Shown: positions 1 through 16,148 of the stretch, in pieces
Layout: each line of letters opens with the position of its first letter
Position numbering within the stretch: the first letter of the stretch is position 1
Source: Candidatus Bathyarchaeota archaeon
Lineage (GTDB): Archaea > Thermoproteota > Bathyarchaeia > Bathyarchaeales > Bathycorpusculaceae
Assembly (NCBI GenBank): GCA_963702095.1
Contig: OY969706.1
Span: 256,001 to 320,000 of the forward strand
Length of the DNA: 64,000 nucleotides
Direction of reading: 5' to 3'
The notes under the pieces: generated by a model
What the model was told of the DNA's origin: nothing
Database searches by the model: none
Seen by the model: the letters and a program-made list of their open reading frames with translations, nothing else
Program-made: the position numbers and the translations under genes

Positions 1-162
1 TAGCCGATATTTTGATTCTCCTAATTGTGGGGGCTGTATTTACAAAACAAGCAGTTACTGCTGGGGACAATGCTCCCTAAACATTTGGAAAAAAGACAAA
101 GAATACTAATTATTTTGGAGTGCACGAGCGATTGCATACTAACTTTAGAAGTTGATTCAGTT

Positions 163-483
163 TTGGAACACACTAACAAGCTTATTGTGAGAGTGGTTAA
201 CCATCAAAAGAATAAACCAATCCAGAATATTACGGTTAAAGTGTTCAAGATCGAAAAAAAACCAATAACACCCGAACAATGGGTTAAAAATCTAAAAAAT
301 GGACCTCCCTTTAAAACCTTAGTTCTCTCAATGAACACCGATAACACTGGTACCGTAACCGCCGAATTCCCTGAAGGTACCTATGAAGCTAAAGTAGAAG
401 GATATGGGTTTAATCAGATTTGCGAATTAACCCAAAATGCTGAAGTTCTCGTTATTGAACCAAAAAAGCATTGGTGGCAATGA
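163..483 (+). CDS. Small hypothetical protein, carboxypeptidase-regulatory/transthyretin-like beta-sandwich
   Basis: ORF 25..483; likely TTG start at 163; motifs KPIQNITVKV and TDNTGTVTAEFPEGTYEAKVEGYG typical of this fold. Confidence 0.5.
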   Translation: MEHTNKLIVRVVNHQKNKPIQNITVKVFKIEKKPITPEQWVKNLKNGPPFKTLVLSMNTDNTGTVTAEFPEGTYEAKVEGYGFNQICELTQNAEVLVIEPKKHWWQ

Positions 484-1048
484 TGTAGTTTGCCTCTATT
501 CCGCGGTCTCTGCAAAGTCTAATGTTCAATTTGAAATAACCGTTTTGAACTGCATCCATGTTTTCAATTGGGGGTTAGCCGAAGTCCTTTGTGCCGCTAA
601 ACCCATATTCTCCTGTAGCTTTTCTAGCAATTTTTGGATTTAGTCCGCCTGCAGAGGCGTCGATCGCTATGACTGGGACCTGATTAACTTGAGAAGATTT
701 AGTCTACTCGCTCGGTCGTTTTTTGCATTATTTGGAGCGGTCAAGCGCGTTTCCTAAGCAATAAAATTCATACAGTTTTGGGAGGCAATGTGTTTCTAAT
801 TATCTAAAACTGGCTCCCACCTGTTGCTTAGTAGTAACCAACCCTATAAGCGTTATTTTATATATTTTGAGGCTTGATAATGCAACAGGCAAGAAAACCT
901 TGAAGCTACCCTATAGCGTTTCAGCTTACAAATTCGACTTGTTCCTCATTTTCTTGATTTTCGGTCTCAGCCTTCCAGCTCTCTCTGGATTACTGATTTT
1001 CCCCTTCTCACTAATACCCTGCACCAGCAGATTAACCATGCAAGAGGT

Positions 1049-3010
1049 TTATAACGACTTTATTGCTTTCGTTGAAGAAGGTATTGATGGAGCCAGTTCT
1101 TCTCGGGAATCAGCGATCACACACTTAAGTTCATTTATACTTGTTGAGTCCAATAGAATACTTGGAGGCTTTTTGGGGTCTATGTAAATTTGGAACCAGA
1201 GTTCCAAAGTTAACACCATCCAAAAGAATTGAGAGAGATCATATTCGACTGCGGGATCAATGTCGTCAGTACATAACATATCAAATGTTTTGAGTAACTT
1301 ACTTTGGTTAAATATCCCTCTGTCCTTGAATCTTTCAGAAGATAGGATTTCAAGGATTTCTGGGCGAAGGCTCTTAACCCACTTGATTGCTGGAACAGAA
1401 CTACCAAACTTCCGTCTGGATTTACGAACAGCTTCCGGTATCAAGCCTTTAACGGCCTCTCTTAAAACGTATTTAGATATGCCTCTTCTGCTTTTCTGGC
1501 TTTCTGGCAATGACATACAAAAAAGCATGAATTCGGGGTCTAAACAAGGATATCGGGGTTCAATAGAAAAAGCAGAGAAAATCATATCCTGAGCCTGCAA
1601 AATCTCTACTATGCTTCCTATCGTTCGGTCAACTTGTGATTCTTCGGTTCGAGCAAAATTCTCAGTGATACGCGCACGGGAAATGTATTCTTGGTTTAGG
1701 AATTGTGATTCTTTTCGTGTTGCTGTTGACTCTCTAAGTAGCTTTAGTTGGTTTACTATCTTCCCAAACGTAACGTAAGACAAATCTTGATGCACTATCA
1801 TACCTATTGTTTCAACTAAAAACTTGCCAAATTTCTTTTTTTGCCAAAGGATTCTAAGATATTCATAAATCTCAACATCCCCGCTAAGATATGTATCCAT
1901 TCCAGTCCCCAAGAAAGCCACTTTTGCACGTTCGTTCCCCAACGCCCTGGCTAAACATAATGACATATAAGCACTCTCGAAGTGGCAGGGTTCTTCCAAG
2001 CAAAAAACCAATCGCTCTAACTCTTTCCGTCCGAGTGATTGATGAAGGTTCACGTAATTGACCTCGGTTTCTCGGAACCGTTCGTATTCTCTAATGTATG
2101 GTTCCTCATTTACTCCTCTGGAGTCACCCGCACTGACAGCGGAAACCAATGTTTGCGTTCCAACTTGGTTTATCTTAGCAAGTTCATTAGAAATCAAAGA
2201 AGCAATAGCTTGGCTATCAATGCCCCCGCTCATGCATGTTCCAAATTGCACATCTTTGGGTAGCATTTTCTTGGTTGTATGCTGTAATTTATCTAAGAAA
2301 AGCGAGGAATAGTTATAATTCCCCTTTTTCGGGGCTGACGGAGAGGGAAGATGCCAATACTCAAAAACCTCTGGCTTGTTTTCTCCTAAAGTAAAAACCG
2401 CATAATATCCAGGCAACACTTCCTTTATCTGGGCAAAATAAGTATCACCACTCCTAAAATGGTAACGCTGTAATAAGTATCTGCACAATAAATCATGGTT
2501 GGGTTTACGTGGGATTGTTTGGTCAATAAAAAGGGCTTTTATCTCGGATGCCAACGCATAACTGTCGCCGTTTGCCGTATAAAATAGCGGCTTACTTCCT
2601 AATCGGTCTCTGACAGCAAACAACTTTTCCTGTGTTGAATCCCATATGCAGAAGGCAAAGACTCCGTCTAACTGTTTTATGCAATCTATACCATTGATTT
2701 CATAGGCTTTTAAGACAAGTTCGGCATCTGAGTAAACTGTAGTCGCGTTTTTATCAAGTTGTTCTTTGAGTTCACGACTATTGTATAATGTTCCGTCAAG
2801 GGTAATCCAAATGTTTTTTTTCTTGTTGCAGAGTGGTTGGTGAACAAACTTAGAACCCCTAAAAGACGCAACATTTCCGATCGCTACTTTTGAATCTAAA
2901 AACCAGCCGGAATCATCGGGTCCTCGATGTTTGAGAGCTTGACACATTTTACGTACTAACTCGTAGGATCTACCTGAATCATACCCTAAGAGAGCGACAA
3001 TCCCGCCCAA
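1049..3010 (-). CDS. Asparagine synthetase B-like protein with degenerate glutaminase domain
   Basis: HRGPD, RDRLGSKPLFY, SGGIDS PP-loop, FSIEPRYPCLD; GGTGA SD then TTG start gives MGGIVA (no Cys1). Confidence 0.8.
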   Translation of the reverse strand: MGGIVALLGYDSGRSYELVRKMCQALKHRGPDDSGWFLDSKVAIGNVASFRGSKFVHQPLCNKKKNIWITLDGTLYNSRELKEQLDKNATTVYSDAELVLKAYEINGIDCIKQLDGVFAFCIWDSTQEKLFAVRDRLGSKPLFYTANGDSYALASEIKALFIDQTIPRKPNHDLLCRYLLQRYHFRSGDTYFAQIKEVLPGYYAVFTLGENKPEVFEYWHLPSPSAPKKGNYNYSSLFLDKLQHTTKKMLPKDVQFGTCMSGGIDSQAIASLISNELAKINQVGTQTLVSAVSAGDSRGVNEEPYIREYERFRETEVNYVNLHQSLGRKELERLVFCLEEPCHFESAYMSLCLARALGNERAKVAFLGTGMDTYLSGDVEIYEYLRILWQKKKFGKFLVETIGMIVHQDLSYVTFGKIVNQLKLLRESTATRKESQFLNQEYISRARITENFARTEESQVDRTIGSIVEILQAQDMIFSAFSIEPRYPCLDPEFMLFCMSLPESQKSRRGISKYVLREAVKGLIPEAVRKSRRKFGSSVPAIKWVKSLRPEILEILSSERFKDRGIFNQSKLLKTFDMLCTDDIDPAVEYDLSQFFWMVLTLELWFQIYIDPKKPPSILLDSTSINELKCVIADSREELAPSIPSSTKAIKSL

Positions 3011-3183
3011 ACATGTCACCAGTCATTTTTTGGCTCTGTAGAGATTTATATTTTGTGTATTGCTAATCATTAAAAAAAGACAATTATCGACCAGTTGATT
3101 TGTGATTGTTAGAAAAATTTAAGGTTTCTTAAAAGAAAGGTGCAAAAAATTTATACAGAACAGAAAAAAGGCAATTCATAGCC

Positions 3184-3227
3184 ATCTCCACGGCTTAAAG
3201 GCTCGAACATCCACACCGCCTGCATCA
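3184..3227 (+). repeat. Degenerate copy of the tRNA-3'-end-containing segment at 3367-3407
   Basis: ATCTCCACGGCT...TCGAA...CCAC...CCTGCATCA aligns with ATCTCCACGGCT...TTCGAATCCCACCCCTGCACCA. Confidence 0.55.
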
Positions 3228-3384
3228 CAGCCCTCTAAGCGCTGAATTATATAGGCTTAACACCTTGAACTGTTGATGCAGTGCTAAAGCCGCCACACCA
3301 ACCCCATAAAGAGAGAGAAAAGCAAAACAAACGTTGATCTGCTGGTAAAAGAGACGGGCGGGCGATATCTCCACGGCTCAGAGA

Positions 3385-3407
3385 GTTCGAATCCCACCCC
3401 TGCACCA
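3385..3407 (+). other. tRNA 3'-end fragment (Leu-like), possible att-site remnant
   Basis: GTTCGAATCCCACCCCTGCACCA = T-loop, T-stem 3' side, acceptor strand and CCA; upstream GAGAG does not pair with CCCAC and no D or anticodon arm is present. Confidence 0.6.
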
Positions 3408-3626
3408 AGACCTGACTTTATCGGTTGACTCTTGATTTGATGACTATCAGCAACAGCTAAGCCTGAGAATCCGAGTTACACGCAAAGTCAACAGGCGATT
3501 TTTTTCTGTATAAAGAAAGCATTAATGCTTAAATTGTTCATCACTAATAGGAAACTATTGTAGAGCCGCCTGTTTACTTTTAGGTGATTCCAAATATCAG
3601 CCTCTGTTTTACTTGCCACTAAAAAT

Positions 3627-4287
3627 TTGAAGAAACTGCTTTATCGTTCAAAATATTTCTCTTTAGTATTCTTCATCGTTTTTTTATCTACTTTTTATTC
3701 CATACAGTCAAGGTTATTTTGGTCAGATTTTTCTTTCACTTATAGTGTCACTGGTTCTGGTTATTGCAGGGTTTTCAGTAAAACAAGAGAAAACAATCGG
3801 CCCAATTACCCTGCTGATAGTTTTTGTGACTTTGTTCTTTGTTTGGTTCTTTACAATTCAAGGAAGCCGGCACAGCGAGGAACTTGTGCGTTTTTTTACA
3901 ACAATTTCTTTCTCACTTATTGGAGCCTTGATCTTTATCAACGTCATCAAAACTGAGCGAAAGAAGGCTATTGAGATGGATTTGGTATGGGGTGGTGTGG
4001 CGACTTATCTTTTGATCGGGTTGGCTTTCGCTTCGATTTACCGTTTGGTTGAATTATACGTGCCGGGCTCTTTTTCCAGTTTATCGACTCCGCCTATGCA
4101 TGATTTTTCTAATTTTATTTATTTTAGCTATTATGCGTTGACTACGATAGGTGGACTTATGACGCCCAACACCTTGCAGGCACAGTCGCTTGTGATGTTG
4201 GAGCCTATTATAGGAACGTTGTTTATCGCTATTTTGATTTCACGCTTGGTAGGCATTGTTGGGAGTAAAGAAAACCAAGCCTCGTAA
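3627..4287 (+). CDS. Potassium-channel-family (Ion_trans_2) membrane protein; frameshift in T-run near 3680
   Basis: ORFs 3627..3956 and 3745..4287 join on removing one T; pore helix YFSYYALTTIGG and inner helix LEPIIGTLFIAILISRLV. Confidence 0.75.
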
Positions 4288-4387
4288 TGAACCGAAAGAA
4301 TGCAAAGGATAGGCGGGTAGGGGGAGCATAATCGCGTCAAATAGTTTTTAAGTAATATGAGGTTACCTTTAGGTAAGTGTTGGTTTT

Positions 4388-4669
4388 ATGGTTGAAGATT
4401 TTGATCTTGAAGACTTTAATCTGATTGACATGAATGCGAAGAAGGTCCTGGTTGCTCTATCAGACTTTGACAAAGGATTACTGATTAAAGGGGAAATGGT
4501 ACATAAGAAAACTGGTTTAACCCCCGCCGACATAAACGATGCAGTTAGAAGCCTAAAAGAGTCCTTGCTGGTCGATATACCCGATGCCCTCAAAAACTTG
4601 CTGCCCTACGACTTCTACGCGGTGGAAATCACGGATTTTGGAAGACAAGTGCTGGAACAATACGGGTGA
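4388..4669 (+). CDS. Small winged-helix protein
   Basis: TGLTPADINDAVRSLKESLLV...VEITDFGRQVL wHTH pattern. Confidence 0.6.
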   Translation: MVEDFDLEDFNLIDMNAKKVLVALSDFDKGLLIKGEMVHKKTGLTPADINDAVRSLKESLLVDIPDALKNLLPYDFYAVEITDFGRQVLEQYG

Positions 4670-5037
4670 GAGGCTTCTTATTATTTTTCCTTTGTCGCTT
4701 TTCTTAATTACCCTCCAAGGGTTATTTTATAATGTAAACAAATGTAAAGCGACTCCCCTGACTCCCTAAAATAATTAAAGTAAAATGAAAAGGGGTTTGC
4801 AGATGGCCTCTCTTGGCCAACAAAGGGTCGACTCCTACCTGTCCATAAAACATAGAATGAGTTTATTGCTTCTGGATTATAGGTTATCTACGTTATGCCT
4901 CTTTTTGGAATAGCGCACTAATAATCAACCATTCTATCGGTACTACTCTAATAAAGAAACAAAAAGAATGGAGAGGCGTGTCGCTACTTTTCAGCAGCGA
5001 CCTCTTTGGATTTCATGTTTATCTCTCTCGAAGAATT

Positions 5038-5259
5038 TTACTGGGGTCGCATGCTTCTATTGCCGATTATGTTGAATCTTATTAGCCCTAAAGCAAGTAT
5101 TACTATGCCTAAGACAAGCGATGCAGTACCTAAACCTGACCCGCGTAATAGATTAGGTAAAATTATTATCGCTGTTCCCACTAACGCCAGTATTATTCCA
5201 ATTAAAGCTAGAAGACTCCCTTGTTTCTTGTTTTTCCTTATCGGTCGTTGTTCAACCAT
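5038..5259 (-). CDS. Small two-TM membrane protein
   Basis: Two hydrophobic helices with basic N-terminus; purine-rich SD-like sequence upstream. Confidence 0.6.
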   Translation of the reverse strand: MVEQRPIRKNKKQGSLLALIGIILALVGTAIIILPNLLRGSGLGTASLVLGIVILALGLIRFNIIGNRSMRPQ

Positions 5260-5775
5260 CTTAGCCCTCTCCGTGTAGAGACAGGGTGAACTGTTCGTAT
5301 ATTAAAACATTATCAGCAGGACTTGATTCAAGTATCCAAATTGTAATGGATACAATGTTACATTTGCTCAGAAATTAGGCGCGTCATCCATTGATCCCCC
5401 AACAACCGTTAACCTCAACAGTGGTACCAATCATAACAGTTAGCACACTTAGTGGATGAGCTTAGAGGAAAAATGAATCCCTAAAGGTGCATATACTCTA
5501 ATTACACTATCACCGCTATCAAGACAACAAGCGCTAAATCCAACCATAACACCTTAACCTCCAAATTTAGTGCCTCATCCTCACCCTTAACAAAAGGCAA
5601 TCTCTCTGCACAGGTGGTAATCATATTACCGTTTCCAGGTCCCCGTATTATTTGAGGTCATGTTAGTAGTCATCATAATTATCTCGCTGGTATAGTGCTT
5701 TTTATTAGGTATCGAAACAGTAAGTCCAATGAGCTTCAAATAACATAACTATGTTAAGAGCGGGAGCTAGAATAA

Positions 5776-5943
5776 GTGAAGAAAAAAGACAGCGTCGAAG
5801 TAAGCGAATGCGAAACCTTCCAGTCCTACAACGAAAAACTCAAAGCAAAGTACGGTGACCAGTGGCTGGGAAAAGGCAAGTGTACTGGACTGGAGTTCAA
5901 ACGCTGGATAGCTCTACGGGACAACCTCACAGAAATCCCCTGA
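5776..5943 (+). CDS. 55-aa hypothetical protein (below ORF-track cutoff)
   Basis: GGGAG then GTG AAG AAA AAA GAC...; open to TGA 5941-5943. Confidence 0.45.
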   Translation: MKKKDSVEVSECETFQSYNEKLKAKYGDQWLGKGKCTGLEFKRWIALRDNLTEIP

Positions 5944-6082
5944 CCTCTCACTTGAAAAACCGCCTTTGACTATTTCTATTCAATAGTTTTTTAAGGCAAC
6001 ACAACAATAACTTTTCATTCACTATAGTATTTACCTATGGTCGGGAGTCCAACCACTTGCCACATTTAGGGATGCGAAAAAC

Positions 6083-7195
6083 ATGAACAAACAATTGCTA
6101 ACAGGTATTTTTATTGTATTTTTCCTTTTTTCAATTCTAGTTATCCCCCAAATAGTCTACTGTCAAACAGATGCACCGTCCGCAACAGAGCCAGCGCCAA
6201 CCGAAGCAGCACAAGGAGGCTTTAACTGGTTACTTGTGGGCGGAATCTCGGCGGCTGTGGTAGCGGCTGTTGTCGTCGTAGTTGCATTTGTTTTTACTAA
6301 GAGAAGGGTTAGCGAAAAAAGCCTCAGAAAAGTTTCATCCCGTGCCTTCGAAGATTGGGTTATTAAGCGGTTCAATGGCAAACCAAGCGATCCGACTTCG
6401 GGTGTAAGTGCAGTTACCGAGGGAGGTCAACCGCTCTTAATCGTGCAGTCTGATCATATTGGTTTAGCCGAGGTTGAAGATTTTGTTAAAGTATTGGCTA
6501 GGGGCGGAACGCAGAAGGGTACGATTGTAGCTTTCAATTTCGATAATGACACCGTCGAGGGAAAAGTAGCAGCATTGGATAACGGCATTGAGCTTCAGTT
6601 GGTACGTGTAAATGAACTGGTGAATAAACGCTATGCTGGAAGGATCAAAAGCCTTGCCCGTTCACAGGCAACCTTTGAGGCCCCACCGGTTGGCATCATG
6701 GAAGATCAAGTTCCTGAGACAAAAACACCAGCCTTTGAAAGAATGCCCATGGCAAGTAGCCACTCAGGAGATGCTCTGGGAAGACCCCGGGTCTTCATAT
6801 CTAACAGCAACACAAAGGTAGCGGACCAAGTAAGAAAAATGCTGGATTTCCTAGATTACGGCTATGTCACGGGCGACAAAGAAGAAACTACAGTGCCTAT
6901 TTCGGACAATAAATTTGGGTTAATGCAAAACTGCGACTGCGCGATAATCAACATAGCCGCAGCTGAACAGGAAAGACGGTACAGCGGACTCTACGTTCTA
7001 AATTCAACGGTTTCCTCAGAAATCAACGCTGCGTACCTGAAATATAACACTCAAGTGGTTCTGCTGGTTGAAAGAAAAGTAGATTTACCTCCAAACCTTA
7101 AAGGGGTAAACAGAATTGACTATGACAGTGATGATTTGTCTTTCAACGCAGCAATGGATCTTAAGAAAACCTTAGAGGGCTTTAAAAAAATATAG
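6083..7195 (+). CDS. Membrane-anchored protein: signal peptide, TM helix, inactive Mrr-like domain, C-terminal TIR-like (CAP12/Pycsar-type) domain
   Basis: N-terminal hydrophobic signal; second TM ending KRR; FEDWV...KGTIVAFNF Mrr-like pattern; RVFIS...NSTVSSEINAA...VDLPPNLKG TIR-like pattern. Confidence 0.75.
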   Translation: MNKQLLTGIFIVFFLFSILVIPQIVYCQTDAPSATEPAPTEAAQGGFNWLLVGGISAAVVAAVVVVVAFVFTKRRVSEKSLRKVSSRAFEDWVIKRFNGKPSDPTSGVSAVTEGGQPLLIVQSDHIGLAEVEDFVKVLARGGTQKGTIVAFNFDNDTVEGKVAALDNGIELQLVRVNELVNKRYAGRIKSLARSQATFEAPPVGIMEDQVPETKTPAFERMPMASSHSGDALGRPRVFISNSNTKVADQVRKMLDFLDYGYVTGDKEETTVPISDNKFGLMQNCDCAIINIAAAEQERRYSGLYVLNSTVSSEINAAYLKYNTQVVLLVERKVDLPPNLKGVNRIDYDSDDLSFNAAMDLKKTLEGFKKI

Positions 7196-7217
7196 TTAAG
7201 CCTCAAAACCCGAGGTA

Positions 7218-7509
7218 TTAGGTTTCTTTTGAGAGTTTCTCAACCAACTGCTCTCCTTCCGCGGTAAGGTCGTATTGACGGTACTCGCTTCGGGCAGTTT
7301 CTTTTAATTCGCCTTTTAAGAGGCGGGCTCTCTCCAAGACAGCCAAATCATGCATCACCTGCTTAACATCGTAAAACGCTGGGCCCTCACTCTGAGGCAT
7401 CATATCAAAAGGCCGGCACCTTTGCCACCCGAATCAAAAGAGACCGGTAGCGTTCAAACCCTTCCTCAAACTCTTTCATTTCACGTGCTTTGTTTTCTTC
7501 AGCAACCAT
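7218..7509 (-). CDS. Small winged-helix-like protein; frameshift in T-run near 7405
   Basis: MVAEENKAREMKEF...VPAF joins DMMPQ...YRQYDLTAEGEQLVEKL on deleting one T. Confidence 0.5.
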
Positions 7510-7652
7510 ATTCAACCTATTTTTTAATTCTAAGGACATAAAACGCCAACCCAAAACTATCTAACTAAAGAACCATTTTTAATCAGCTTCTGTGGCTAAA
7601 GAGTCTTTAGGCGACTTAGCACTTATTGCTTCGCCGTTTCCTGCCTGCATGA

Positions 7653-7832
7653 CCCGTTTACGTTGGCTATGATGATGCTTGGGTATCACAGGTTCCTGAG
7701 TTTCCGGCAGCGTTGGCGGCAACGGTTTGTTTGCTTGTAGTGACAGCAGTAGCAATCCTTTTTGATTGTATAAGATATTTAACTTTTACCCTTATCCCTC
7801 AAACGCTTCAAAACAGAGGGGCATCTAACTAA
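7653..7832 (+). pseudogene. Orphan C-terminal fragment with PEF-CTERM-like sorting signal
   Basis: Frame reads PVYVGYDDAWVSQVPEFPAALAATVCLLVVTAVAIL immediately after a TGA, with no start codon. Confidence 0.4.
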
Positions 7833-8305
7833 GCGAGTGCCCGCTTACAATGAAAAAGAGATTGTAGGATGCATCTGCAACGTTAAAGCGGTTTAAATCC
7901 ACCATTGTACCATTACTACTTACCTGTGTCGGATTGCAGGCAGTTTTGGCTTTCTTAGCCACTTCTTTTATGGCAGTAAAAGAGGGGTCTGCTCCACAAA
8001 ATGGCAATAGGGTAATTGACAGAACAGCGCCTGCTTAAGTGATTATAACCAAGTTGCATGATTGCTCAGGGCAGTAGGTAACGCCACCCAACGACGGAAA
8101 GTCCGTTAAAAACGTTCACATATACAACTAATAGATAGTAATAGTAAACTTTAACAGATTAAACGCCGGGATTTTTGAGTATCTACTAAGCGGTCTTTTA
8201 GATTTGACGTTTCAATGCAGAAACTCTCTGATAAAGACAAAAACCCAGCTTTTTTGGAGCTTTTGGGAAAACAACTAAATAGTTGAAGAGTTCAATCATA
8301 AGACT

Positions 8306-8998
8306 ATGACCTACGTAAAGAAACGCTCTAACCTCAAAGTCTACATCGCCGTAACCGCAGTTATTGTACTGGTCATAGCTGCCTTTGCTGGGATCTACCT
8401 ATTGAATTCTGGTTCCAAACCTGTAACTGTCGGTGTACGAGTTGGTGACACCTTCACTTATAGTATAGTGGGTACTTCAGAATTCGCTGAAGAAGGAACC
8501 AACGACACCCCTGGTTTTGACCAATACAACCAAACGGATTATTTCAAGATAACAATCACTGACGTAACTGGAACTAACGTTTCCATGGATTCTGTTTGGC
8601 GCTTCCTAAACGGTACACAGTTATCCTATAAACAAACCCTTGACATTGCAAGCGGAAACAAGACCGACGCAAACGGTTTCTGGGCTATTTACCCAGCCAA
8701 CCTAACTGCAAAAGATCTGCTACGCCCAGTGGGTGCCGACGGCAGAATCGTCAACAAAACCATCACACAAGTCTACACAAGCGGTAACCGAGATACAAAC
8801 TTCTGGTTCATAAACAACCAGTTCTATGACTCCAGAGATACAAGCTACGGTACACTCATGTACGATTACCGCAACATCTACTTCGATAAGGTAACGGGCG
8901 TGTTGACTTCGTATGACGAGTATCAAGTGTTTAACAATCCGCAGATGCAAGAAGTCATCAGTTGGAGACTAGTATCTACCTCAGTTTGGGATGTATAA
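8306..8998 (+). CDS. N-terminally anchored surface/secreted protein
   Basis: Basic N-terminus plus TM; VGVRVGDTFTY and YFDKVTGVL motifs; many N-x-T sequons. Confidence 0.75.
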   Translation: MTYVKKRSNLKVYIAVTAVIVLVIAAFAGIYLLNSGSKPVTVGVRVGDTFTYSIVGTSEFAEEGTNDTPGFDQYNQTDYFKITITDVTGTNVSMDSVWRFLNGTQLSYKQTLDIASGNKTDANGFWAIYPANLTAKDLLRPVGADGRIVNKTITQVYTSGNRDTNFWFINNQFYDSRDTSYGTLMYDYRNIYFDKVTGVLTSYDEYQVFNNPQMQEVISWRLVSTSVWDV

Positions 8999-9187
8999 CT
9001 GCCCAACAACCCCTTTCTTCTTACCTAACCAACAATGTAAGCCTCAAAATTTAATTTTTTACTTAAAAAAGCTATGTTAAAGATGAAAAGTCTGACTGCA
9101 TTTTGAGCTTTTTCTTTAAGTCAAGTATTTATAGCGTTTTTTCTTTGAACTATACAGGTGCTTTTAATGGAAAAATCAGAAAAAAGG

Positions 9188-9391
9188 ATGAGCCAAGCTT
9201 CTGGGTCCATGGAAAAAACAGCCGAAACCATAGGAGACACAATCATAGCAGTCCTTGACAGACTTGCCGGCAAACAATCTGATCTTAAACTCAGCTTCGA
9301 AGACTTAACCCTCGACACAGGAGTCATGAAGGCAAGAGTAAACGGCGCAATCGTTCTAGACCTCGTTATGGCCAAAGAAACCACAGCTTAA
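9188..9391 (+). CDS. Small hypothetical protein
   Basis: ORF with coding-like composition; forms an apparent two-gene unit with the next ORF. Confidence 0.6.
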   Translation: MSQASGSMEKTAETIGDTIIAVLDRLAGKQSDLKLSFEDLTLDTGVMKARVNGAIVLDLVMAKETTA

Positions 9392-9415
9392 AACAATTTT
9401 AAAGGGCGAATTAAA

Positions 9416-9835
9416 GTGCAAATAACCACTTTGCTAGTTGAAACTATGAAATCTGGGAAAATAACGATAAGCCAAAACAACGTTGAAGCCGTCGAAGTAA
9501 ACGTGAAGGACAAAAAAATCGACGTTAACGCAAAAGACAAGGCCTTCATCAAAGAAATCGTTTCCAGCGCACGCGGAACAAGCACAAAAGGCGGCGTCAC
9601 AGAAACCATCCGCAGAGGCGTCGGCACCTTAAGAGAAGCCAGAAAGTCACAGCCGCTGGTCAAAGAAATCGTCGAAGACCTATGCCGAGAAGGCGTCACC
9701 ATAACAGTTTCTTACAAAGGCGACCGCGTGGTAACAATCGGTTCAGAAGCAGACTCAAAGTTCACCAAAGTGGTCACTGGAACCAAAGGCATTGAAATCA
9801 ACAGTCCACTCAAACTTGCAGAAATGGGGATTTGA
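9416..9835 (+). CDS. Hypothetical protein
   Basis: 139-aa ORF with coding-like codon usage. Confidence 0.7.
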   Translation: MQITTLLVETMKSGKITISQNNVEAVEVNVKDKKIDVNAKDKAFIKEIVSSARGTSTKGGVTETIRRGVGTLREARKSQPLVKEIVEDLCREGVTITVSYKGDRVVTIGSEADSKFTKVVTGTKGIEINSPLKLAEMGI

Positions 9836-9876
9836 GCGCCAAACAGCAGTTAGGATTATGCACCAACCCAATTTTT

Positions 9877-11796
9877 CTATTTCTTCCTCTGTTTAGCTTT
9901 TATGAGGGCTAATTTTCCGCCGGCTAAAACCTGCTCTTTTTCATTGCGGCTCAAGTTCAGGCTTACAGTGATTTTTATGCCCTTGGTTTTGTCAACGACC
10001 ACCAAGTGCTCTTTTAACCCGTCAACCTCAAGTATCAACTCATCGCCCATTTCAACGGCATCATAGTCTTTTTTGTCAGCAAACGTCAAGGGCAGAATGC
10101 CGAAGTTTATGAGGTTCGCCAGGTGGATGCGTGCGAATGATTTGGCGATGATGGCTTTGACGCCGAGGTACTTCGGGGCCAAAGCTGCGTGTTCGCGGCT
10201 GCTGCCTTGACCATAGTTTTCGCCGCCCACGACAAATCCGCCGCTTTTTTCCATTGCGCGGCAGGCAAAGGTTTTATCTAAGTGGCAGAAGGTGTAGGTG
10301 CTGATTTCCGGGATGTTGCTGCGTAGGGACATGATTGCGCTGCCGCCGGGAATGATGTCGTCGGTTGTGATGTTGTCACCTGTTTTAAGCAGTACTTCTC
10401 CCGTCAATTTGGAGGGAAGCGGTGGAAAGTCTGGCAGGGGTTTGATGTTGGGTCCCATCGGAACTTTTGTGGTTACGCAGAAACTCGGTTGGATGAACAT
10501 TGCGTCGCTTAGCAGGAATTTCTCGGGCATCTTGATTTCCGGGTATTTGCCGAGTTTGCGTGGGTCAGTGATTTTGCCGTTTAGGGCTGCTGCCGCGGCG
10601 GTTTCGGGGCTGACTAAGTAGACTTTTGCGTCTTGTGTGCCGCTGCGTCCCTTGAAATTGCGGTTGAACGTGCGCAGAGAAACTCCTCCTGAAGGCGGAG
10701 CTTGTCCGATGCCGATACAGGGTCCACAGGCGTTCTCCAGCAATCTGGCGCCTGATTGGATGAAAGGTTCAATTTCCCATGCTGCAGCCAAATTCAACAT
10801 AACCTGCCGTGAACCCGCTGAAACGGTTAAGCTGGTGTTTTCGTTGACTTTTTTGCCTTTGAGCAGCGCTGAGACGATTTTGAGGTCCCGAAGGGACGAG
10901 TTGGTGCAGCTGCCGATGCAGACTTGGTCAACTGGGGTACCTTCGAGTTCAGCGACGGTTTTGACGCAGTCGGGGCTGTGGGGCAAGGCGATGAGGGGTT
11001 CGAGTTTGGAGAGGTCGATTTCTATGGTTTCGTCGTATGTTGCGTCTGGGTCAGCTTTGAGTTCTACCCACATTTCGGGGCGTCCCTCTGCGGTGAGAAA
11101 GGCTTTGGTGACTTCGTCAGAGGGGAAGATGCTGGTGGTGCAGCCTGTTTCGGTGCCCATGTTGGTGATTGTTCCACGTTCAGGCACGCTTAGGGTTTCT
11201 ATACCAGGGCCGTAGTATTCGAGGATTTTGTTTACGCCGCCTTTGACTGAGAGAATTTGGAGAATTTGGAGAATGAGGTCTTTGGCGGATACGAAAGGCT
11301 GCAGTTTGCCTGTGAGTTTGATGCCTACGATTTTGGGCATAACCAAATAGAAGGGTTCGCCTGCCATGGCTGCAGCGACGTCTAAGCCTCCTGCACCGAT
11401 GGCAATCATGCCCATGCCGCCTGCGGTGGGAGTGTGGCTGTCGCTGCCCAGAAGTGTTCTGCCGGGGCGGGCGAAGCGTTCAAGGTAGAGTTGGTGGCAG
11501 ATGCCGTTGCCGGGGCGGCTAAACACTATGCCGTATTTGGCTGCTACGCCTTGGAGGTAGCGGTGGTCGTCGGCGTTGCGGTAGTCGTTTTGGAGCATGT
11601 TGTGGTCGACGAAGCTGAAGCTTAACTCGGTTTTAACTTTGGGAACGCCCATGGCTTCGAATTCTAGGTATGCCATGGTGCCTGTGCTGTCCTGTGTGAG
11701 GGTGTGGTCGATTTTTATAGCGATTTCTTGGTCTGCAGCCATTTCGCCTTCAACTAAGTGTTTAGCTATGATTTTTTGAGCTAAGGTCTGCTTCAA
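9877..11796 (-). CDS. acn: Aconitate hydratase (single-chain, Aquifex-type)
   Basis: DSHT, IGSCTNSS, CGPCIG, NRNFKGR, DNITTDDI, NYGQGSSREHA. Confidence 0.92.
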   Translation of the reverse strand: MKQTLAQKIIAKHLVEGEMAADQEIAIKIDHTLTQDSTGTMAYLEFEAMGVPKVKTELSFSFVDHNMLQNDYRNADDHRYLQGVAAKYGIVFSRPGNGICHQLYLERFARPGRTLLGSDSHTPTAGGMGMIAIGAGGLDVAAAMAGEPFYLVMPKIVGIKLTGKLQPFVSAKDLILQILQILSVKGGVNKILEYYGPGIETLSVPERGTITNMGTETGCTTSIFPSDEVTKAFLTAEGRPEMWVELKADPDATYDETIEIDLSKLEPLIALPHSPDCVKTVAELEGTPVDQVCIGSCTNSSLRDLKIVSALLKGKKVNENTSLTVSAGSRQVMLNLAAAWEIEPFIQSGARLLENACGPCIGIGQAPPSGGVSLRTFNRNFKGRSGTQDAKVYLVSPETAAAAALNGKITDPRKLGKYPEIKMPEKFLLSDAMFIQPSFCVTTKVPMGPNIKPLPDFPPLPSKLTGEVLLKTGDNITTDDIIPGGSAIMSLRSNIPEISTYTFCHLDKTFACRAMEKSGGFVVGGENYGQGSSREHAALAPKYLGVKAIIAKSFARIHLANLINFGILPLTFADKKDYDAVEMGDELILEVDGLKEHLVVVDKTKGIKITVSLNLSRNEKEQVLAGGKLALIKAKQRKK

Positions 11797-11946
11797 GTTA
11801 CTCTTCCTCGTTAATCGTGTCGTAGTTATACGCCAATTGGGAGCAGAGAAATTTTAAGTTTCGCATGTCACTTGAAGGTTTAAATCCTAAAAAGACGATA
11901 AAAAGTGAATAGTTAATCACTATAACAGACAAGAGGCACCACGAGT

Positions 11947-12714
11947 TTGTCGTTTAAAGGTAAAATGCAAGAAGCAGCCAAAAGCAAAAACTCACCGCTA
12001 GTTCTGGCGCTTGATTTCCCCTTTGAAGCCGCTGAAAACCGCAACAACATCCTAATCAAAGCACAGAAAATCCTCAAAGCCGTCCACCCCTACATTGCAG
12101 CAGTAAAAATCAACCATCACCTCACCCTGCCCCTTGGCACCTTCGACGGCGTCCAATTTCTCGTCGAACAAATCCGTGGACAAGGCTTGCTGGCTATCAT
12201 GGATGCAAAAGTCAATGACATCGGAGCCACCAACCAAACTATAGCCGAATACTACTACGCCGCAGGTTTCGACGCCATCATCGCCAACCCATTCGTCGGC
12301 TGGGAAGAAGGCTTAAAACCCCTCTTCGACGTTTCCAAACGCCTCAACCGCGGCGTCATTCTGTTAACTTACATGAGCCACAAAGGCGCCGCTGAAGGGT
12401 ACGGCCAAACCATCGTTGACCCCTACACTGGGCAACAGATGCTACAGTACATTTCTTTTGCTAATAAAGCGCTGCAGTGGGGTGCTGACGGCGTCGTGGT
12501 GGGCGCTACGGTTCCCGAAAAGATTGCTGAGGTAAAGCGGATTTTGGAGGATAAAGTCGAGATTTACTCGCCGGGCGTAGGAGTTCAAGGCGGCGGGGCT
12601 GTGGCGGCGGTTAGGGCTGGCGCAAACTATTTGATCGTTGGCAGAGAAATAACTATGGCGTCTGACCCTGCGGAGTCGGCTCAGAGGATTCTGTGTTCAA
12701 TAAAAGGGGTTTAG
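11947..12714 (+). CDS. pyrF: Orotidine 5'-phosphate decarboxylase
   Basis: LALD, DAKVNDIGATN (DxKxxDIxxT), SPGVGVQGG, IVGR. Confidence 0.93.
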   Translation: MSFKGKMQEAAKSKNSPLVLALDFPFEAAENRNNILIKAQKILKAVHPYIAAVKINHHLTLPLGTFDGVQFLVEQIRGQGLLAIMDAKVNDIGATNQTIAEYYYAAGFDAIIANPFVGWEEGLKPLFDVSKRLNRGVILLTYMSHKGAAEGYGQTIVDPYTGQQMLQYISFANKALQWGADGVVVGATVPEKIAEVKRILEDKVEIYSPGVGVQGGGAVAAVRAGANYLIVGREITMASDPAESAQRILCSIKGV

Positions 12715-14720: not shown

Positions 14721-16148
14721 ATGTTGAGGAATGACAGTCGCTTGAAAGCTGATAGTGCCCTGTCGGTGATTTTGTTTGTTGTTATTCTATCGTCGTCCTT
14801 GCTGGTTTATGTTGAGCCTGCTTCAGCCAACGCCGATAGTGAGAATACTTGGCAGGCGGCGGCGCCGTTGCCGGAAGCTGTTGTTGGGGGTAGAGCGGGT
14901 GTTGTGGATGGGAAAGTCTACGTTATGGACGGTTATCTTAATTACCAGTATGACCCGTCGACAAATACTTGGACGGCTAAAAAACCTATGCCTACACCTA
15001 GGCTCCAGTTTGGAATGGCTGTGTGGCAAGACAAAATATACGTAATAGGCGGGGGGAAAGGCGTGGATTCTACGAATTATCGCTGGAGCCTCTTGTCTGA
15101 TGCAGTTGAAGTCTATGATCCTTCAACTGACACTTGGCAGACTAAGCAGCCGATGCCGACTGCCAGAGTCCAATTACAGGCAAGCGTTGTTAACGGTCAA
15201 ATCTACTTGGTGGGTGGAAAGGAGGATAACCAAAATAAGGTTAATTTAAACGAAGTTTACAATATTGCTAACGATTCGTGGTCAACGGCAGAGCCAATTC
15301 CCTATGCAGTTTACAGTTATACGTCAGCGGTATGCGACGACAAAATCTACATAATTGGCGGTCAAAGCCTGCAGGCGCCGATACTGAATCTTAATTACGC
15401 CCAAATCTATGACTGTGCCAATAACTCTTGGAGTTTTAGTGCTCCTATGCCCACTTCAGTAACGTATGCCGCTGCATGTGCAACAACAGGCGAAGCGGCG
15501 TCTAGAAGAATATATGTTATAGGCGGGGTTTTGGAGGGCAGCTATGACCATGTTGTTTTGGGTGATGTGCAGATTTATGATCCGCAGACTGATTCGTGGA
15601 CGTTTGGCGCATCGATGCCTTCAGTCCGAAACTCTCATACCGTTGCCGCTGTTGATGATAGATTGTACGCGATAGGTGGCAAACCCTACGGTGAGCCTCA
15701 TCCTGTACTATCTGGTGATAAGGATACGTTTACGCATAATGAGGTTTACACGCCGTTTGGTTATGGTGTGCCTGATCCTGCGTATGTGTTTGAGCATACG
15801 CCGCCGCGTGTGACGCTTGAGTCTTCGCTGAATGGGACGACTTTTACTAATTCGTCTGTGCCCTTGGTTTTCTGTGTGGATAAAGTGTTGGATTGGGCTG
15901 GTTATAGTCTGGATGGGCAGGGGAACGTAACTGTATCGGGTAACTTTACTTTGACTGAGCTCTCCAGCGGCACACACAGCGTTGTGGTTTACGCTAACGA
16001 CACCTATGGCAACATGGGTGTCTCTGAAGCCCTGGCTTTCAGTGTAGCGGAGCTCTTTCCAGTGGCGTTTGTGGTTATTGCGGTTTTAGCTGTTGCCGTA
16101 GTCGGTGTGGTTGCTGGTGTGGTTGTTTTCTTTAAGAGACGCCGATGA
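14721..16148 (+). CDS. Kelch-repeat surface protein with Ig-like domain and C-terminal TM anchor
   Basis: Repeated IYVIGG...YDP.T.TW; GTHSVVVYANDTYGN; TM plus KRRR tail. Confidence 0.9.
   Translation: MLRNDSRLKADSALSVILFVVILSSSLLVYVEPASANADSENTWQAAAPLPEAVVGGRAGVVDGKVYVMDGYLNYQYDPSTNTWTAKKPMPTPRLQFGMAVWQDKIYVIGGGKGVDSTNYRWSLLSDAVEVYDPSTDTWQTKQPMPTARVQLQASVVNGQIYLVGGKEDNQNKVNLNEVYNIANDSWSTAEPIPYAVYSYTSAVCDDKIYIIGGQSLQAPILNLNYAQIYDCANNSWSFSAPMPTSVTYAAACATTGEAASRRIYVIGGVLEGSYDHVVLGDVQIYDPQTDSWTFGASMPSVRNSHTVAAVDDRLYAIGGKPYGEPHPVLSGDKDTFTHNEVYTPFGYGVPDPAYVFEHTPPRVTLESSLNGTTFTNSSVPLVFCVDKVLDWAGYSLDGQGNVTVSGNFTLTELSSGTHSVVVYANDTYGNMGVSEALAFSVAELFPVAFVVIAVLAVAVVGVVAGVVVFFKRRR

Follow-up and report, generated by a model that had tools for sequence, protein, structure and literature searches.

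A single gene in the window (the whole stretch of 64,000 nucleotides of Bathyarchaeia DNA analyzed here) encodes a protein of 370 amino acids, in which an effector-type TIR domain is joined to a membrane tether and a degenerate restriction-nuclease fold within one autonomous unit and which, judged by its sequence, may represent an undescribed variant of the NAD-destroying TIR defense proteins. Innate immunity makes wide use of TIR domains, be it in animals, plants or bacteria; archaeal TIR proteins have, to our knowledge, hardly been studied. Bathyarchaeia are abundant, largely uncultured archaea of sediments and soils. The reading that we put forward, at slightly less than even chances, is that of an effector made by a single gene, a TIR NADase tethered to the membrane and activated when it clusters, with a putative enzymatic activity, trigger and role in defense. 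If the TIR domain fires on clustering in the membrane, events at the envelope would be coupled to NAD+ depletion with no need for a cyclase and its second messenger, and the protein would provide a prokaryotic example of a receptor-like TIR topology. If the gene instead encodes an adaptor without enzymatic activity or a regulator of metabolism, its interest would be confined to Bathyarchaeia.

The initial annotation did not recognize the architecture as a described one, and this assessment holds: the 370-amino acid protein matches none of the PADLOC families at E<=10, and the architecture was not found in the literature searched, including the accessible parts of 10.64898/2025.12.03.692087, PMC7075850, and PMC9503650; the supplementary tables of TIR surveys might list it.

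Gene, distribution and neighborhood

The features of the locus, all on the plus strand, are as follows:

5972-6082, plus strand: conserved putative promoter and 5' leader, which travel with the gene (blastn, locus alignments)
6083-7195, plus strand: complete coding sequence, 370 amino acids and stop codon (translation of the reading frame, homologues)
6083-6163, plus strand: residues 1-27, N-terminal hydrophobic helix, ending in YC/QT (AF2 helix, conservation)
6164-6223, plus strand: residues 28-47, short, predicted extracellular stalk rich in Pro, Ala, Thr and Glu (sequence)
6224-6298, plus strand: residues 48-72, predicted transmembrane helix (AF2 helix 49-71)
6299-6334, plus strand: residues 73-84, stop-transfer KRR and juxtamembrane motif SEKSLRK (conservation)
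6335-6661, plus strand: residues 85-193, Mrr-type PD-(D/E)xK fold without the catalytic triad (model, structure matches, homology to paralogues)
6407-6409, plus strand: codon of S109, at the Asp position
6437-6439, plus strand: codon of L119, at the Gln/Glu position
6443-6445, plus strand: codon of V121, at the Lys position
6662-6781, plus strand: residues 194-233, acidic linker, poorly conserved and modeled with low confidence (pLDDT, conservation)
6782-7192, plus strand: residues 234-370, TIR domain of the CAP12/PycTIR (PF10137) clade (paralogues, Pfam matches of the family, fold)
7019-7021, plus strand: codon of Glu313 (motif SSEINAAY)
residues 335-341, plus strand: LPPNLKG motif (LPxNxxG conserved)

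The reading frame (6083-7195, plus strand) has the extent given in the initial annotation and encodes 370 amino acids. Homologues of the protein number 175 at E<=0.001 (identity 58-100% among the 120 listed), more than 120 of them full-length; because of this conservation, chance can be excluded as the origin of the reading frame, and the gene is evidently real. It occurs in 39 of the 120 species genomes of the host genus, with one copy per genome, and 16 genomes representing other families of the order lack it; across the GTDB species genomes just 37 loci were found, every one of Bathyarchaeia type. No relative was detected in the viral contigs scanned, and a search of sequencing runs found no matching RNA run, and DNA runs with word shares of at most 0.12. 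A presence in about one third of the species of a single genus is ill suited to a core function. The family as a whole is strongly conserved, with a mean identity of the TIR domain to the query of 79%, which is atypical for fast-evolving defense genes and thereby speaks against a defense effector.

The gene is accessory within the genus, as had been proposed: besides its patchy distribution, its genomic contexts vary, and genomes without it retain the flanking block (3 of 5). Among 38 loci, no neighbor is present in more than 13. The candidate for a conserved operon partner, a membrane protein of 230 amino acids, is the commonest neighbor and was rejected as such, being present in 13 of the 38 loci; of five genomes checked that lack the TIR gene, three still have this membrane protein next to aconitase, and in all five no homologue of the TIR gene lies in the 12 kb flanking the aconitase gene. 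A Pfam scan of 20 neighbors returned metabolic, transport or unknown genes, with no recognized defense gene and no defense-island context among them. The GC content of the first 10 kb of the window is 40-44%, compared to about 45-52% elsewhere, and Rfam and tRNA scans of positions 1-12000 of the window found nothing. No cyclase gene stands among the neighbors, and the earlier remark that none is nearby can be extended to the whole 2.94-Mb genome (90% complete), where neither PF00211 nor PF18144 (SMODS) has a match. One rare type of neighbor is a LOG/SLOG-cluster-4 protein (PF18306, E 7e-19; PF03641, E 1e-18), which occurs in 4 of the 120 genomes of the genus, three of which carry the TIR gene, and which lies within 1.5 kb of it in two (G005 and G133); the source genome has no homologue of this protein at E<=1e-20.

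What does travel with the gene is the element directly upstream (5972-6082). It is 78-91% identical (blastn) in all seven orthologous loci found in relatives, four of which have unrelated neighborhoods, and its conservation is seen again when 8 or 36 loci are aligned, with the element present in 36 of 36. It contains a TATA-like TTTTTTAAGG at 5987-5996 and a Shine-Dalgarno-like GGGAT about 8-10 nt before the ATG, which we interpret as a putative promoter and ribosome binding site. RNAalifold found no consensus structure in the element. A 7-bp RNA hairpin was considered and rejected, as it pairs in 87.8% of cells, equal to the shuffled mean, and shows no covariation beyond shuffles; it may instead be a protein-binding inverted repeat. 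With its own putative promoter and leader, no conserved neighbor, and no PF00211 or PF18144 cyclase in the genome, the gene is solitary and autonomous.

Membrane anchor and predicted topology

The AF2 model begins with a helix of residues 3-23, followed by VYC/QT, where Q23, C27, Q28 and T29 are nearly invariant and C27 is found in 106 of 122 family sequences. Residues 1-27 are probably a signal peptide that is cleaved; alternatively, they could form a first transmembrane helix. The stalk that follows (residues 28-47) has a net charge of -3, no Lys or Arg, and a mean identity to the query of 0.39. The second AF2 helix (residues 49-71), to which a weak Pfam transmembrane match at residues 48-71 corresponds, runs into TKRRVSEKSLRK. 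E78 of the juxtamembrane motif SEKSLRK is kept in 118 of 122 family sequences. Two predicted helices and the positive-inside KRR are compatible with a type I topology and a cytoplasmic TIR domain, and from the positive-inside rule we infer that both globular domains face inward, in agreement with the side first assigned to them. The overall order of signal peptide, stalk, transmembrane helix with KRR, Mrr-type fold and TIR domain is likewise borne out by the AF2 helices and the domain models. The comparison with a Toll-like receptor made in the initial annotation stands as far as the predicted topology is concerned, but not for the ectodomain, which is a stalk of about 20 residues without a ligand-binding domain.

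A TIR domain of the PF10137 clade

The C-terminal domain, which starts at nucleotide 6782 (residue 234) as first stated, was recognized through its relatives and its fold. The 370-amino acid protein itself scores below the threshold of PF10137 (E 0.043, 14.2 bits, under the 24.7-bit cutoff), is not recovered by a PF10137 search of the source genome, and yields nothing useful in NCBIfam or PDB sequence searches. PF10137 is matched at E<=0.01 by 35 of 40 family members, the best at 4.8e-7. Moreover, the paralogues P0129, P0131, P0134, P0138, and P0141, which score 56-66 bits on PF10137 (cutoff 24.7), are found by phmmer at about E 2e-29 to 1e-23 over residues ~207-369, and the TIR domains of the soluble paralogues are about 40% identical to residues 234-369. 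The fold search with residues 234-370 placed the TIR domain of SfSTING/Cap12 at the top (7un8_A, Z 14.2, rmsd 2.6, 122 residues), followed by 9lmq_A (Z 12.9) and then rows of Z<=11.8, among them MilB (Z 11.8), 6evs and 7o62 (Z ~11), 4w8h (Z 11.1), and 6lhy_A (Z 10.1). Taken together, profile and fold identify the domain as what is, by homology, a TIR domain of the PF10137 clade.

The initial annotation had pointed to a retained Glu and LP motif in this domain, and the family upholds both. In a weak profile match (E 0.042), Glu313 and LPPNLKG align with the Glu of NVHLEFG, which we take to be the catalytic residue of PycTIR and Cap12, and with LPSDAAG of PycTIR (8jsj_A). The role of the TIR Glu in general is treated in the accessible text of PMC7075850. 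Of the 122 family members, 117 have Glu313, and an equivalent Glu is found in all 48 soluble paralogues. The remaining five sequences, which belong to three separate lineages, carry Ala or Thr at this position with all other motifs intact (P0099, P0117, and P0100 are variants of this kind). Two of them are no more than 87% identical to each other and yet retain the remaining motifs, which suggests a function able to outlast the NADase chemistry. Conservation is higher than that of the Glu at D285, E295, R298, and N307, none of which varies in 122 of 122 sequences.

A Mrr-type fold without its catalytic residues

Between the membrane and the TIR domain, residues ~85-193 form a domain modeled at a pLDDT of 96.5. 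Its best structural matches by VIA-align are all PD-(D/E)xK nucleases, namely AF1548 (1y88_A, Z 10.1), the FokI cleavage domain (2fok_A, Z 9.5) and LlaBIII (4xqk_A, Z 8.9), with further matches to BspD6I, AspBHI, NucS, and MspJI. Homology is provided by L003, a paralogue in the same genome fused to a DNA methylase, which matches residues 76-184 (E 5e-11), scores 26 bits on the Pfam model Mrr_cat, above its cutoff of 21, and retains D...QVK. The 370-amino acid protein has no match to Mrr_cat (PF04471) at E<=10, and one of 40 family members does (E 0.0032). Foldseek, which the initial annotation had named for both globular domains, ranked TIR-STING first for the TIR domain (E 1.6e-5) but gave no match at E<=0.001 for the isolated Mrr-like domain, so that the fold assignment of the latter rests on VIA-align and the homology chain. 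As a lead, the nearest ESM-Atlas clusters are Mrr_cat clusters, with members that are mostly also labeled NA-iREase1, at a score of 0.81, which lies below the threshold.

S109, L119, and V121 occupy the catalytic positions, and the motifs around them, GVSA and LIVQ, are exactly those given in the initial annotation. Of the 122 family members, 114 have a residue other than Asp at the Asp position (N 74, S 23, T 17; D in the other 8), 119 have Leu in place of the Gln/Glu, and 46 have Lys at the Lys position, which is mostly hydrophobic in the others. By comparison, 36 TIR-less paralogues of the module keep the Asp in 36 and the Lys in 27 cases. The metal-binding Asp, the Gln/Glu and the Lys are lost; therefore, as far as sequence can tell, the domain can no longer cut DNA and is an inactive derivative rather than a nuclease. 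A complex prediction with two copies of the domain (residues 74-196), run without controls, scored 0.01 against a mark of 0.42 and has no bearing on dimerization either way. The linker to the TIR domain is modeled at a pLDDT of 47-57 at residues ~201-230, with a mean identity of 0.35 and a net charge of -4.

Relatives without a TIR domain

The transmembrane helix and the Mrr-like domain form a module that is the sole cytoplasmic part of many TIR-less surface proteins. Proteins of this kind, with signal peptide, stalk, transmembrane helix and Mrr-like domain but varied ectodomains, occur in the same genome and genus: L002 of the source genome has a zinc-ribbon ectodomain, P0132, P0153, and P0194 are other examples, and the genus contains further matches to residues ~30-190. 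The juxtamembrane Glu of SEKSLR is present in 49 of 49 rows of an alignment spanning TIR-bearing and TIR-less members. Among the sequences compared, the only TIR-bearing forms with a real ectodomain are P0121 (505 amino acids), P0122 (609 amino acids) and a frame of 502 amino acids in G108. In P0121 and P0122, ectodomains of ~140-250 amino acids replace the stalk; they have no Pfam match at E<=0.01, and neither protein matches PADLOC. The ectodomain of P0122 is 52% identical over 172 amino acids to that of the TIR-less P0194 (E 5e-44). A larger, apparently undescribed group of surface proteins with a cytoplasmic Mrr-like tail is thereby revealed. The module may serve some general purpose that has nothing to do with sensing, and it may already have a name in a newer Pfam release. 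PF27998 appears in precomputed annotations of the TIR-less paralogues.

Proposed function and alternative readings

As a membrane-tethered NADase effector, the protein would be inserted in type I orientation: its signal peptide would be cleaved off, ~20 residues of stalk would lie outside, and one transmembrane helix would follow, such that both globular domains would be cytoplasmic. The membrane-proximal domain, derived from a Mrr-type restriction nuclease, would most likely act as a sensor or an assembly scaffold. The TIR domains of Cap12 and PycTIR, from the same clade, hydrolyze NAD+ and become active only upon being forced into oligomers. Here a stimulus at the membrane, possibly a disturbance of the envelope or a ligand that the dead nuclease domain binds, would cause the protein to cluster in the plane of the membrane. 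The clustered TIR domains might then hydrolyze NAD+, or convert it to a signal, and the loss of NAD+ could lead to cell arrest, as in abortive infection. That the Mrr-like domain detects DNA entering at the membrane, as the initial annotation suggested, would be purely conjectural; its net charge is just +2. In favor of a NADase effector we count the TIR identity, the retained Glu, the link to defense families, the precedent of PycTIR for the mechanism, the accessory behavior, the autonomy of the gene and the dead nuclease. Against it we count the PF10137 score below the cutoff, the lack of a PADLOC match, the lineages with a replaced Glu, the non-defense neighbors and the residues that are more invariant than the Glu (D285, E295, R298, and N307). 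The occurrence of the transmembrane and Mrr-like module in TIR-less surface proteins tempers it as well.

It is possible, if on balance unlikely, that the protein is a non-catalytic receptor or adaptor within a modular type I surface family, where the TIR domain would serve for homotypic interaction or nucleotide binding and the TIR form with its bare stalk might act as a co-receptor together with paralogues that have an ectodomain but no TIR domain. The proteins that combine this module with varied ectodomains and lack a TIR domain (L002, P0132, P0153, P0194), the ectodomain common to P0122 and TIR-less P0194, the Glu lost in three lineages with other motifs intact, and the SEKSLR Glu that is invariant with or without a TIR domain would all fit such a family, for which a membrane-anchored TIR protein of Hydra without a ligand-binding domain, as described in the accessible text of PMC7075850, might be an analogue. 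However, the Glu is found in 117 of 122 members and in 48 of 48 soluble paralogues, as expected of enzymes, and the PF10137 clade is the one with demonstrated NADases. Moreover, we see no TIR adaptor that could act downstream as a partner, and the sole other PF10137 protein in the genome is unlinked to the gene. A receptor system of Bathyarchaeia analogous to Toll-like receptors, where members with an ectodomain would sense surface events (e.g., virus attachment) and, by associating laterally through the transmembrane and Mrr-like module, cluster the stalk-only TIR protein so that its TIR domain fires inside the cell, is improbable in our estimation; if true, transmembrane TIR signaling would be an archaeal invention parallel to animal Toll-like receptors and the LRR/TRR pair of Hydra.

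The TIR domain could also generate a signal, converting NAD+ to a cyclic ADP-ribose-type molecule like ThsB of Thoeris, with an effector encoded elsewhere or sometimes nearby. This is improbable, and the observation that raises it is the rare LOG/SLOG protein within 1.5 kb of the gene in G005 and G133; three of its four hosts carry the TIR gene, and SLOG domains are described in the accessible text of PMC11204291 as the cADPR sensors of ThsA. However, the association is seen in two of 38 loci, the LOG/SLOG protein has no effector domain, the source genome has no homologue at E<=1e-20, and no neighbor is conserved across loci. The TIR domain is also nearer to the effector TIRs Cap12/PycTIR (7un8_A, Z 14.2) than to ThsB (6lhy_A, Z 10.1). 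Least probable of all is a housekeeping function at the membrane that has no part in conflict, exerted by an N-glycosidase acting on nucleotides or NAD+ or by a regulator that binds nucleotides and through which some of the species would control metabolism or dormancy, which the metabolic and transport genes nearby, the high sequence conservation with one copy per genome, and fold neighbors among nucleoside 2-deoxyribosyltransferases and CMP N-glycosidases (MilB, Z 11.8; 6evs and 7o62, Z ~11) would suit. Restriction to about one third of the species of one genus speaks against it, as do the sequence kinship with PF10137 TIRs rather than with deoxyribosyltransferase families and the soluble paralogues that match PADLOC defense candidates.

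Comparison with known systems

The closest known relatives are Cap12/TIR-STING (SfSTING; 7un8, 9lmq) and PycTIR (8jsj), the TIR NADase effectors of CBASS and Pycsar, with which the protein shares the PF10137 TIR clade, the Glu and LPxxxxG. The NADase activity of PycTIR is switched on by oligomerization, according to the accessible text of PMC11224242. The 370-amino acid protein differs from both in being archaeal, in its predicted membrane anchor, and in the dead Mrr-type fold in the position of the sensor: searches of Pfam, NCBIfam and PADLOC found no STING, CNBD or SAVED sensor, and a restriction endonuclease fold stands N-terminal to the TIR domain instead. Unlike CBASS and Pycsar, it has no PF18144 or PF00211 cyclase in the locus or the genome (90% complete), and in contrast to Thoeris, no ThsA-type neighbor is conserved over 38 loci, two of which have the LOG/SLOG-like protein nearby. 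The soluble TIR paralogues match PDC-S35, a single-gene candidate for phage defense in PADLOC (E 1e-5 to 1e-11), as well as CBASS TIR effector models and PycTIR. With PDC-S35 and the soluble P0129, P0131, P0134, and P0141 (~360-380 amino acids), the protein has in common that a domain without catalytic function comes first and is connected by an acidic linker to a PF10137 TIR domain at the C-terminus, whereas the N-terminal domain of these soluble paralogues is helical and unrelated, and PDC-S35 itself is not matched by the 370-amino acid protein.

The membrane-proximal domain has the same fold as Mrr/Mrr_cat (PF04471), AF1548 (1y88), FokI, and LlaBIII (Z 8.9-10.1), with a homology chain via L003. 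It differs from Mrr nucleases in that D...(E/Q)xK reads S...LxV, in its membrane tether, and in having no DNA-recognition domain attached. A restriction endonuclease fold is also found in immune proteins, in Avs4 and as the NACHT-associated inactive domain NA-iREase1 (PF22722), and the N-terminal domain of Avs4 is matched with Z 6.8; the 370-amino acid protein has no NTPase and no sequence match to PF22722, and in Avs4 the nuclease is the effector. Animal Toll-like and IL-1 receptors resemble the protein by analogy, not by demonstrated orthology, in the predicted type I topology with a cytoplasmic TIR domain. Their TIR domain belongs to a different clade than the enzymatic one found here, the archaeal protein places a dead nuclease between the membrane and the TIR domain, and its ectodomain of ~20 residues shows no homology to LRR or Ig domains. 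The stalk-only ectodomain has a parallel in the membrane-anchored TIR protein of Hydra, as described in the accessible text of PMC7075850, and the TIR domain of Hydra TRR-2 (4w8h) is itself among the fold matches (Z 11.1).

Gene and domain layout

The ORF at 6083-7195 (+) is uninterrupted, encodes 370 aa and is a real gene. A word-indexed search returned 175 homologues with E<=0.001. Of these, 120 were listed; they share 58-100% identity with the window protein, nearly all over full length. The labels of their source MAGs are mostly Bathyarchaeia, Bathyarchaeota or Nitrososphaerota, and 22 of the 120 sequences already bear PF10137 in precomputed annotations. Every sequence element named in the initial annotation was found again in the translation, the AF2 model and the family alignment, in the following order:

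aa 3-23: N-terminal hydrophobic helix, with a conserved YC|QT at its end
aa 28-47: Pro/Ala/Thr/Glu stalk, free of K/R
aa 49-71: second helix, followed by TKRRVSEKSLRK
aa ~85-193: first globular domain
aa 194-233: acidic linker, of low model confidence
aa 234-370: second globular domain

The AF2 model, built from a 126-row alignment, reaches a mean pLDDT of 86.4 and a pTM of 0.52; the single domains are therefore modelled well, and their relative orientation is not. The positive-inside rule points to a type-I topology, which would place both globular domains inside.

The C-terminal domain is a predicted TIR of the CAP12/PycTIR clade

Sequence and modelling agree in assigning the C-terminal domain to the TIRs of the CAP12/PycTIR clade. 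This bears out the initial annotation, which had read it as TIR-like: residues 234-370 model as a TIR, the Glu and LPPNLKG are present, and paralogues pass PF10137. Its closest structures are SfSTING/Cap12 TIRs (7un8_A, Z 14.2, rmsd 2.6, 122 aa; 9lmq_A, Z 12.9), followed by generic flavodoxin-like folds and other TIRs (Z<=11.8), and Foldseek agrees with this placement. On the window protein itself PF10137 remains sub-threshold (E 0.043, 14.2 bits vs 24.7), with model positions 1-118 of 119 covered; of 40 family members, 35 match it at E<=0.01. When 1.84 billion representatives were searched exhaustively with phmmer, 312 matched. Many of these are soluble and some 360-380 aa long, and their last ~135 residues share ~40% identity with aa 234-369 (lowest E 2e-29); five of these soluble paralogues, scanned with Pfam, score 56-66 bits on PF10137. 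The soluble paralogues also match PADLOC's single-gene candidate PDC-S35 (E 1e-5 to 1e-11), CBASS TIR effector models and PycTIR; PADLOC returned no match for the window protein or for the long TIR-bearing forms P0121 and P0122.

In a profile search with the TIR domain, the top PDB sequence was PycTIR (8jsj_A), a weak match (E 0.042) in which Glu313 falls on the Glu of NVHLEFG and LPPNLKG on LPSDAAG. Of 122 family members, 117 retain Glu313, as do all 48 soluble paralogues; D285, E295, R298 and N307 are conserved more strictly still across the 122. In three separate lineages (P0099/P0103, P0117/P0120 and P0100), Ala or Thr has taken the place of the Glu while every neighbouring motif is retained, and one such pair has since diverged to 87% identity. 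The window genome encodes a second PF10137 TIR protein (L058, G000:C1:128000-137500, ORF 4261-5115 (-); 284 aa, 58 bits). It sits among purine-biosynthesis-like and nitroreductase-like genes and reads ...VILMFGF... where the family usually has Glu, the motif being placed by eye.

The middle domain: a decayed nuclease from a modular surface-protein family

Pfam Mrr_cat has no direct match on the window protein and matches only one of 40 family members (E 0.0032). The assignment of this domain comes from two paralogues of residues ~45-184 in the same genome and from structure:

L003 (G000:C1:1192873-1196211), ORF 472-1854 (+): 460-aa N6/N4 DNA methylase fused to Mrr_cat
L002 (G000:C1:1270171-1273605), ORF 859-1935 (+): signal peptide, DnaJ-type CxxCxGxG zinc-ribbon ectodomain, TM helix, KKRR and Mrr-like tail

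The C-terminal domain of L003 exceeds the Mrr_cat cutoff (26 bits vs 21), retains D...QVK and matches the window protein at E 5e-11; it is likely the ancestral, active form of the module domain. The tail of L002 retains GIDG...IK. Modelled alone (pLDDT 96.5), the domain of the window protein finds PD-(D/E)xK proteins in all of its ten best matches among 48,161 PDB representatives, including AF1548 (Z 10.1), FokI (9.5), LlaBIII (8.9), BspD6I (8.8), AspBHI (8.6), NucS (8.5), MspJI (8.1) and Can2 (8.0); Foldseek returned nothing at E<=0.001. The catalytic positions are occupied by S109, L119 and V121. Paralogues, fold search and catalytic positions thus agree on a decayed Mrr-type nuclease as the predicted identity of the middle domain, and the earlier description of a dead Mrr domain was correct. 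Across the 122 family members, the Asp position holds N in 74, S in 23, T in 17 and D in eight, the Gln/Glu position is Leu in 119, and 46 members have Lys at the Lys position, where the remainder are mostly hydrophobic. The 36 TIR-less paralogues of the module retain Asp in every case, Lys in 27 (Arg in five) and Gln in eight; the TIR-bearing family has therefore specifically relaxed the remaining active site. Beside the L003 methylase, a 306-aa ORF at 2150-3070 (-) shows transposase-like zinc-finger and DDE-like text on reading.

The unit of signal peptide, stalk, TM and Mrr-like domain forms the C-terminal part of many TIR-less proteins, whose ectodomains range from low-complexity stalks (P0132) through zinc ribbons (L002, P0153 and 24 relatives) to a large multi-domain form (P0194, 871 aa). 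Real ectodomains also occur on rare TIR-bearing forms, namely P0121 (505 aa), P0122 (609 aa) and a 502-aa frame in another genome of the genus, G108. P0122 and the TIR-less P0194 share 52% identity over 172 aa of ectodomain and 40% in the stalk/TM/Mrr part, and the Glu of the juxtamembrane SEKSLR is invariant in 49 of 49 rows of the module alignment. Within a modular surface-protein family with a REase-like cytoplasmic tail, the window protein thus represents a branch that acquired a TIR. The genome encodes a further type-I surface protein at 14721-16148 (+), a 475-aa ORF whose N-terminus is signal-like; Kelch-like repeats were seen by eye, the C-terminal TM helix ends in KRRR, and there is no Mrr-like tail.

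Distribution, neighbourhood and control region

Some match to the window protein occurs in 59 of 120 species genomes of the genus. The TIR gene is full-length and intact-looking in 36 and split or cut by a contig end in three more (39 of 120 in total); elsewhere in the order, 16 genomes representing 11 further families gave no match of any kind. A pattern scan of GTDB species genomes yielded 37 loci, all in Bathyarchaeia-type MAGs, and the viral contigs scanned held no relative. In three MAGs (L051, L052 and L054, gene at ~6001-7115 each) the gene consists of two ORFs (133+220, 259+100 and 200+183 aa), and it is likewise split in genomes G099 and G113; the splits may reflect either pseudogenes or frameshifts introduced by long-read assembly.

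When the ORFs at 38 loci, each taken with at most 6 kb on either side, were clustered, the most frequent neighbours were a 230-aa membrane protein (13 loci) and, behind it, an aconitase-family gene (12). All others occur in nine loci or fewer, and many loci have nothing in common. Within 12 kb flanking the aconitase gene, five TIR-less genomes contain no homologue of the TIR gene, and in three of them the 230-aa protein still adjoins aconitase; the TIR gene is thus a presence/absence polymorphism and not part of the aconitase block. Its accessory status, proposed earlier, is upheld by this varied and patchy occurrence. A Pfam scan of twenty neighbours gave metabolic and transport genes and genes of unknown function (among them transaldolase, transketolase, GNAT, MFS, ferredoxin, DUF998, PQQ propeller and ion channel), with no recognised defence gene; no defence-island context is seen. 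The initial annotation had seen no cyclase nearby, and this extends to the whole genome (one contig of 2.94 Mb, 90% complete): PF00211 and PF18144 have no match, and therefore the genome as a whole, not only the neighbourhood, yielded no CBASS or Pycsar partner.

Immediately upstream of the ATG, 111 nt (5972-6082, +) show 78-91% identity between orthologous loci, including those whose neighbours differ wholly. With a control region conserved in sequence, the gene is therefore a transcription unit of its own. We interpret a T-rich box with an invariant TTTAA as TATA, and GGGAT, about 8-10 nt ahead of the start, as an SD motif; the region probably combines a promoter with an operator or leader on which a regulator acts. 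RNAalifold found no consensus structure in its alignment, and a 7-bp inverted repeat was rejected as RNA structure, its covariation being no greater than in shuffles. Rfam and tRNA scans of window positions 1-12000 found nothing, and a search of sequencing runs found no RNA run containing the locus.

GC is 40-44% over window positions 1-10000 vs about 45-52% further on. This stretch holds a 656-aa asparagine-synthase-like ORF (read from translation), an ion channel (PF07885) and the TIR gene, with ORF-poor gaps at 4670-6082 and 7196-8305. Two small ORFs, at 7218-7403 (-; 61 aa) and 4388-4669 (+; 93 aa, without Pfam match), look winged-helix-like by eye. The former recurs at 95% identity in one genome, G007, and nowhere else; neither is conserved beside the TIR gene in other genomes.

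Possible modes of action

The best-supported reading, which we hold tentatively and at somewhat less than even confidence, is a one-gene, membrane-tethered TIR effector. TIRs of the CAP12/PycTIR clade are described in PMC11224242 as NADases firing upon oligomerisation, and the tethered TIR would act likewise. Given that neither a second-messenger sensor nor a cyclase is present, the activating signal would have to arise at the membrane or at the dead nuclease domain. The domain layout, the lost nuclease residues, the retained Glu, the autonomy of the gene and its patchy occurrence are observed; NADase activity, trigger and defence role are what we infer for such an effector. Several observations speak against it and raise the rather unlikely reading of a non-catalytic receptor or adaptor: the loss of Glu313 to Ala or Thr in three lineages with surrounding motifs intact, the stricter conservation of D285, E295, R298 and N307, the missing defence island, and a conservation unusually high for a defence gene.

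That the protein generates a signal in the manner of ThsB seems quite improbable. The one thin lead is a LOG/SLOG-cluster-4 gene found in four of 120 genus genomes, three of which have the TIR gene, and lying <=1.5 kb from it in two; the 193-aa product (PF18306, PF03641) is encoded at L017 8824-9405 (+) in G005 and at G133:C3:30338-30886, and the counts are too low to establish an association. An archaeal counterpart to TLRs, signalling through a transmembrane TIR protein with ectodomain-bearing proteins as co-receptors, is very unlikely. Least probable is a housekeeping role, which the neighbour genes fit but the patchy distribution does not.

Relation to known systems

The initial annotation did not recognise the architecture as described, and it was found neither in PADLOC nor in full-text searches of the articles themselves. 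Precomputed annotations of TIR-less relatives carry PF27998 and PF27659, so the Mrr-like module may already have a name in a newer Pfam release. Prokaryotes commonly fuse TIR to a variety of sensor domains, and the window protein is therefore a variant of a known TIR-fusion type. It shares its TIR clade with Cap12/TIR-STING and PycTIR, which use another sensor and depend on a cyclase, and is related to the PDC-S35 candidate via its soluble relatives. With Mrr-type nucleases it has the fold alone in common, its own domain being inactive, and its likeness to TLRs and Hydra TRR is one of topology only.
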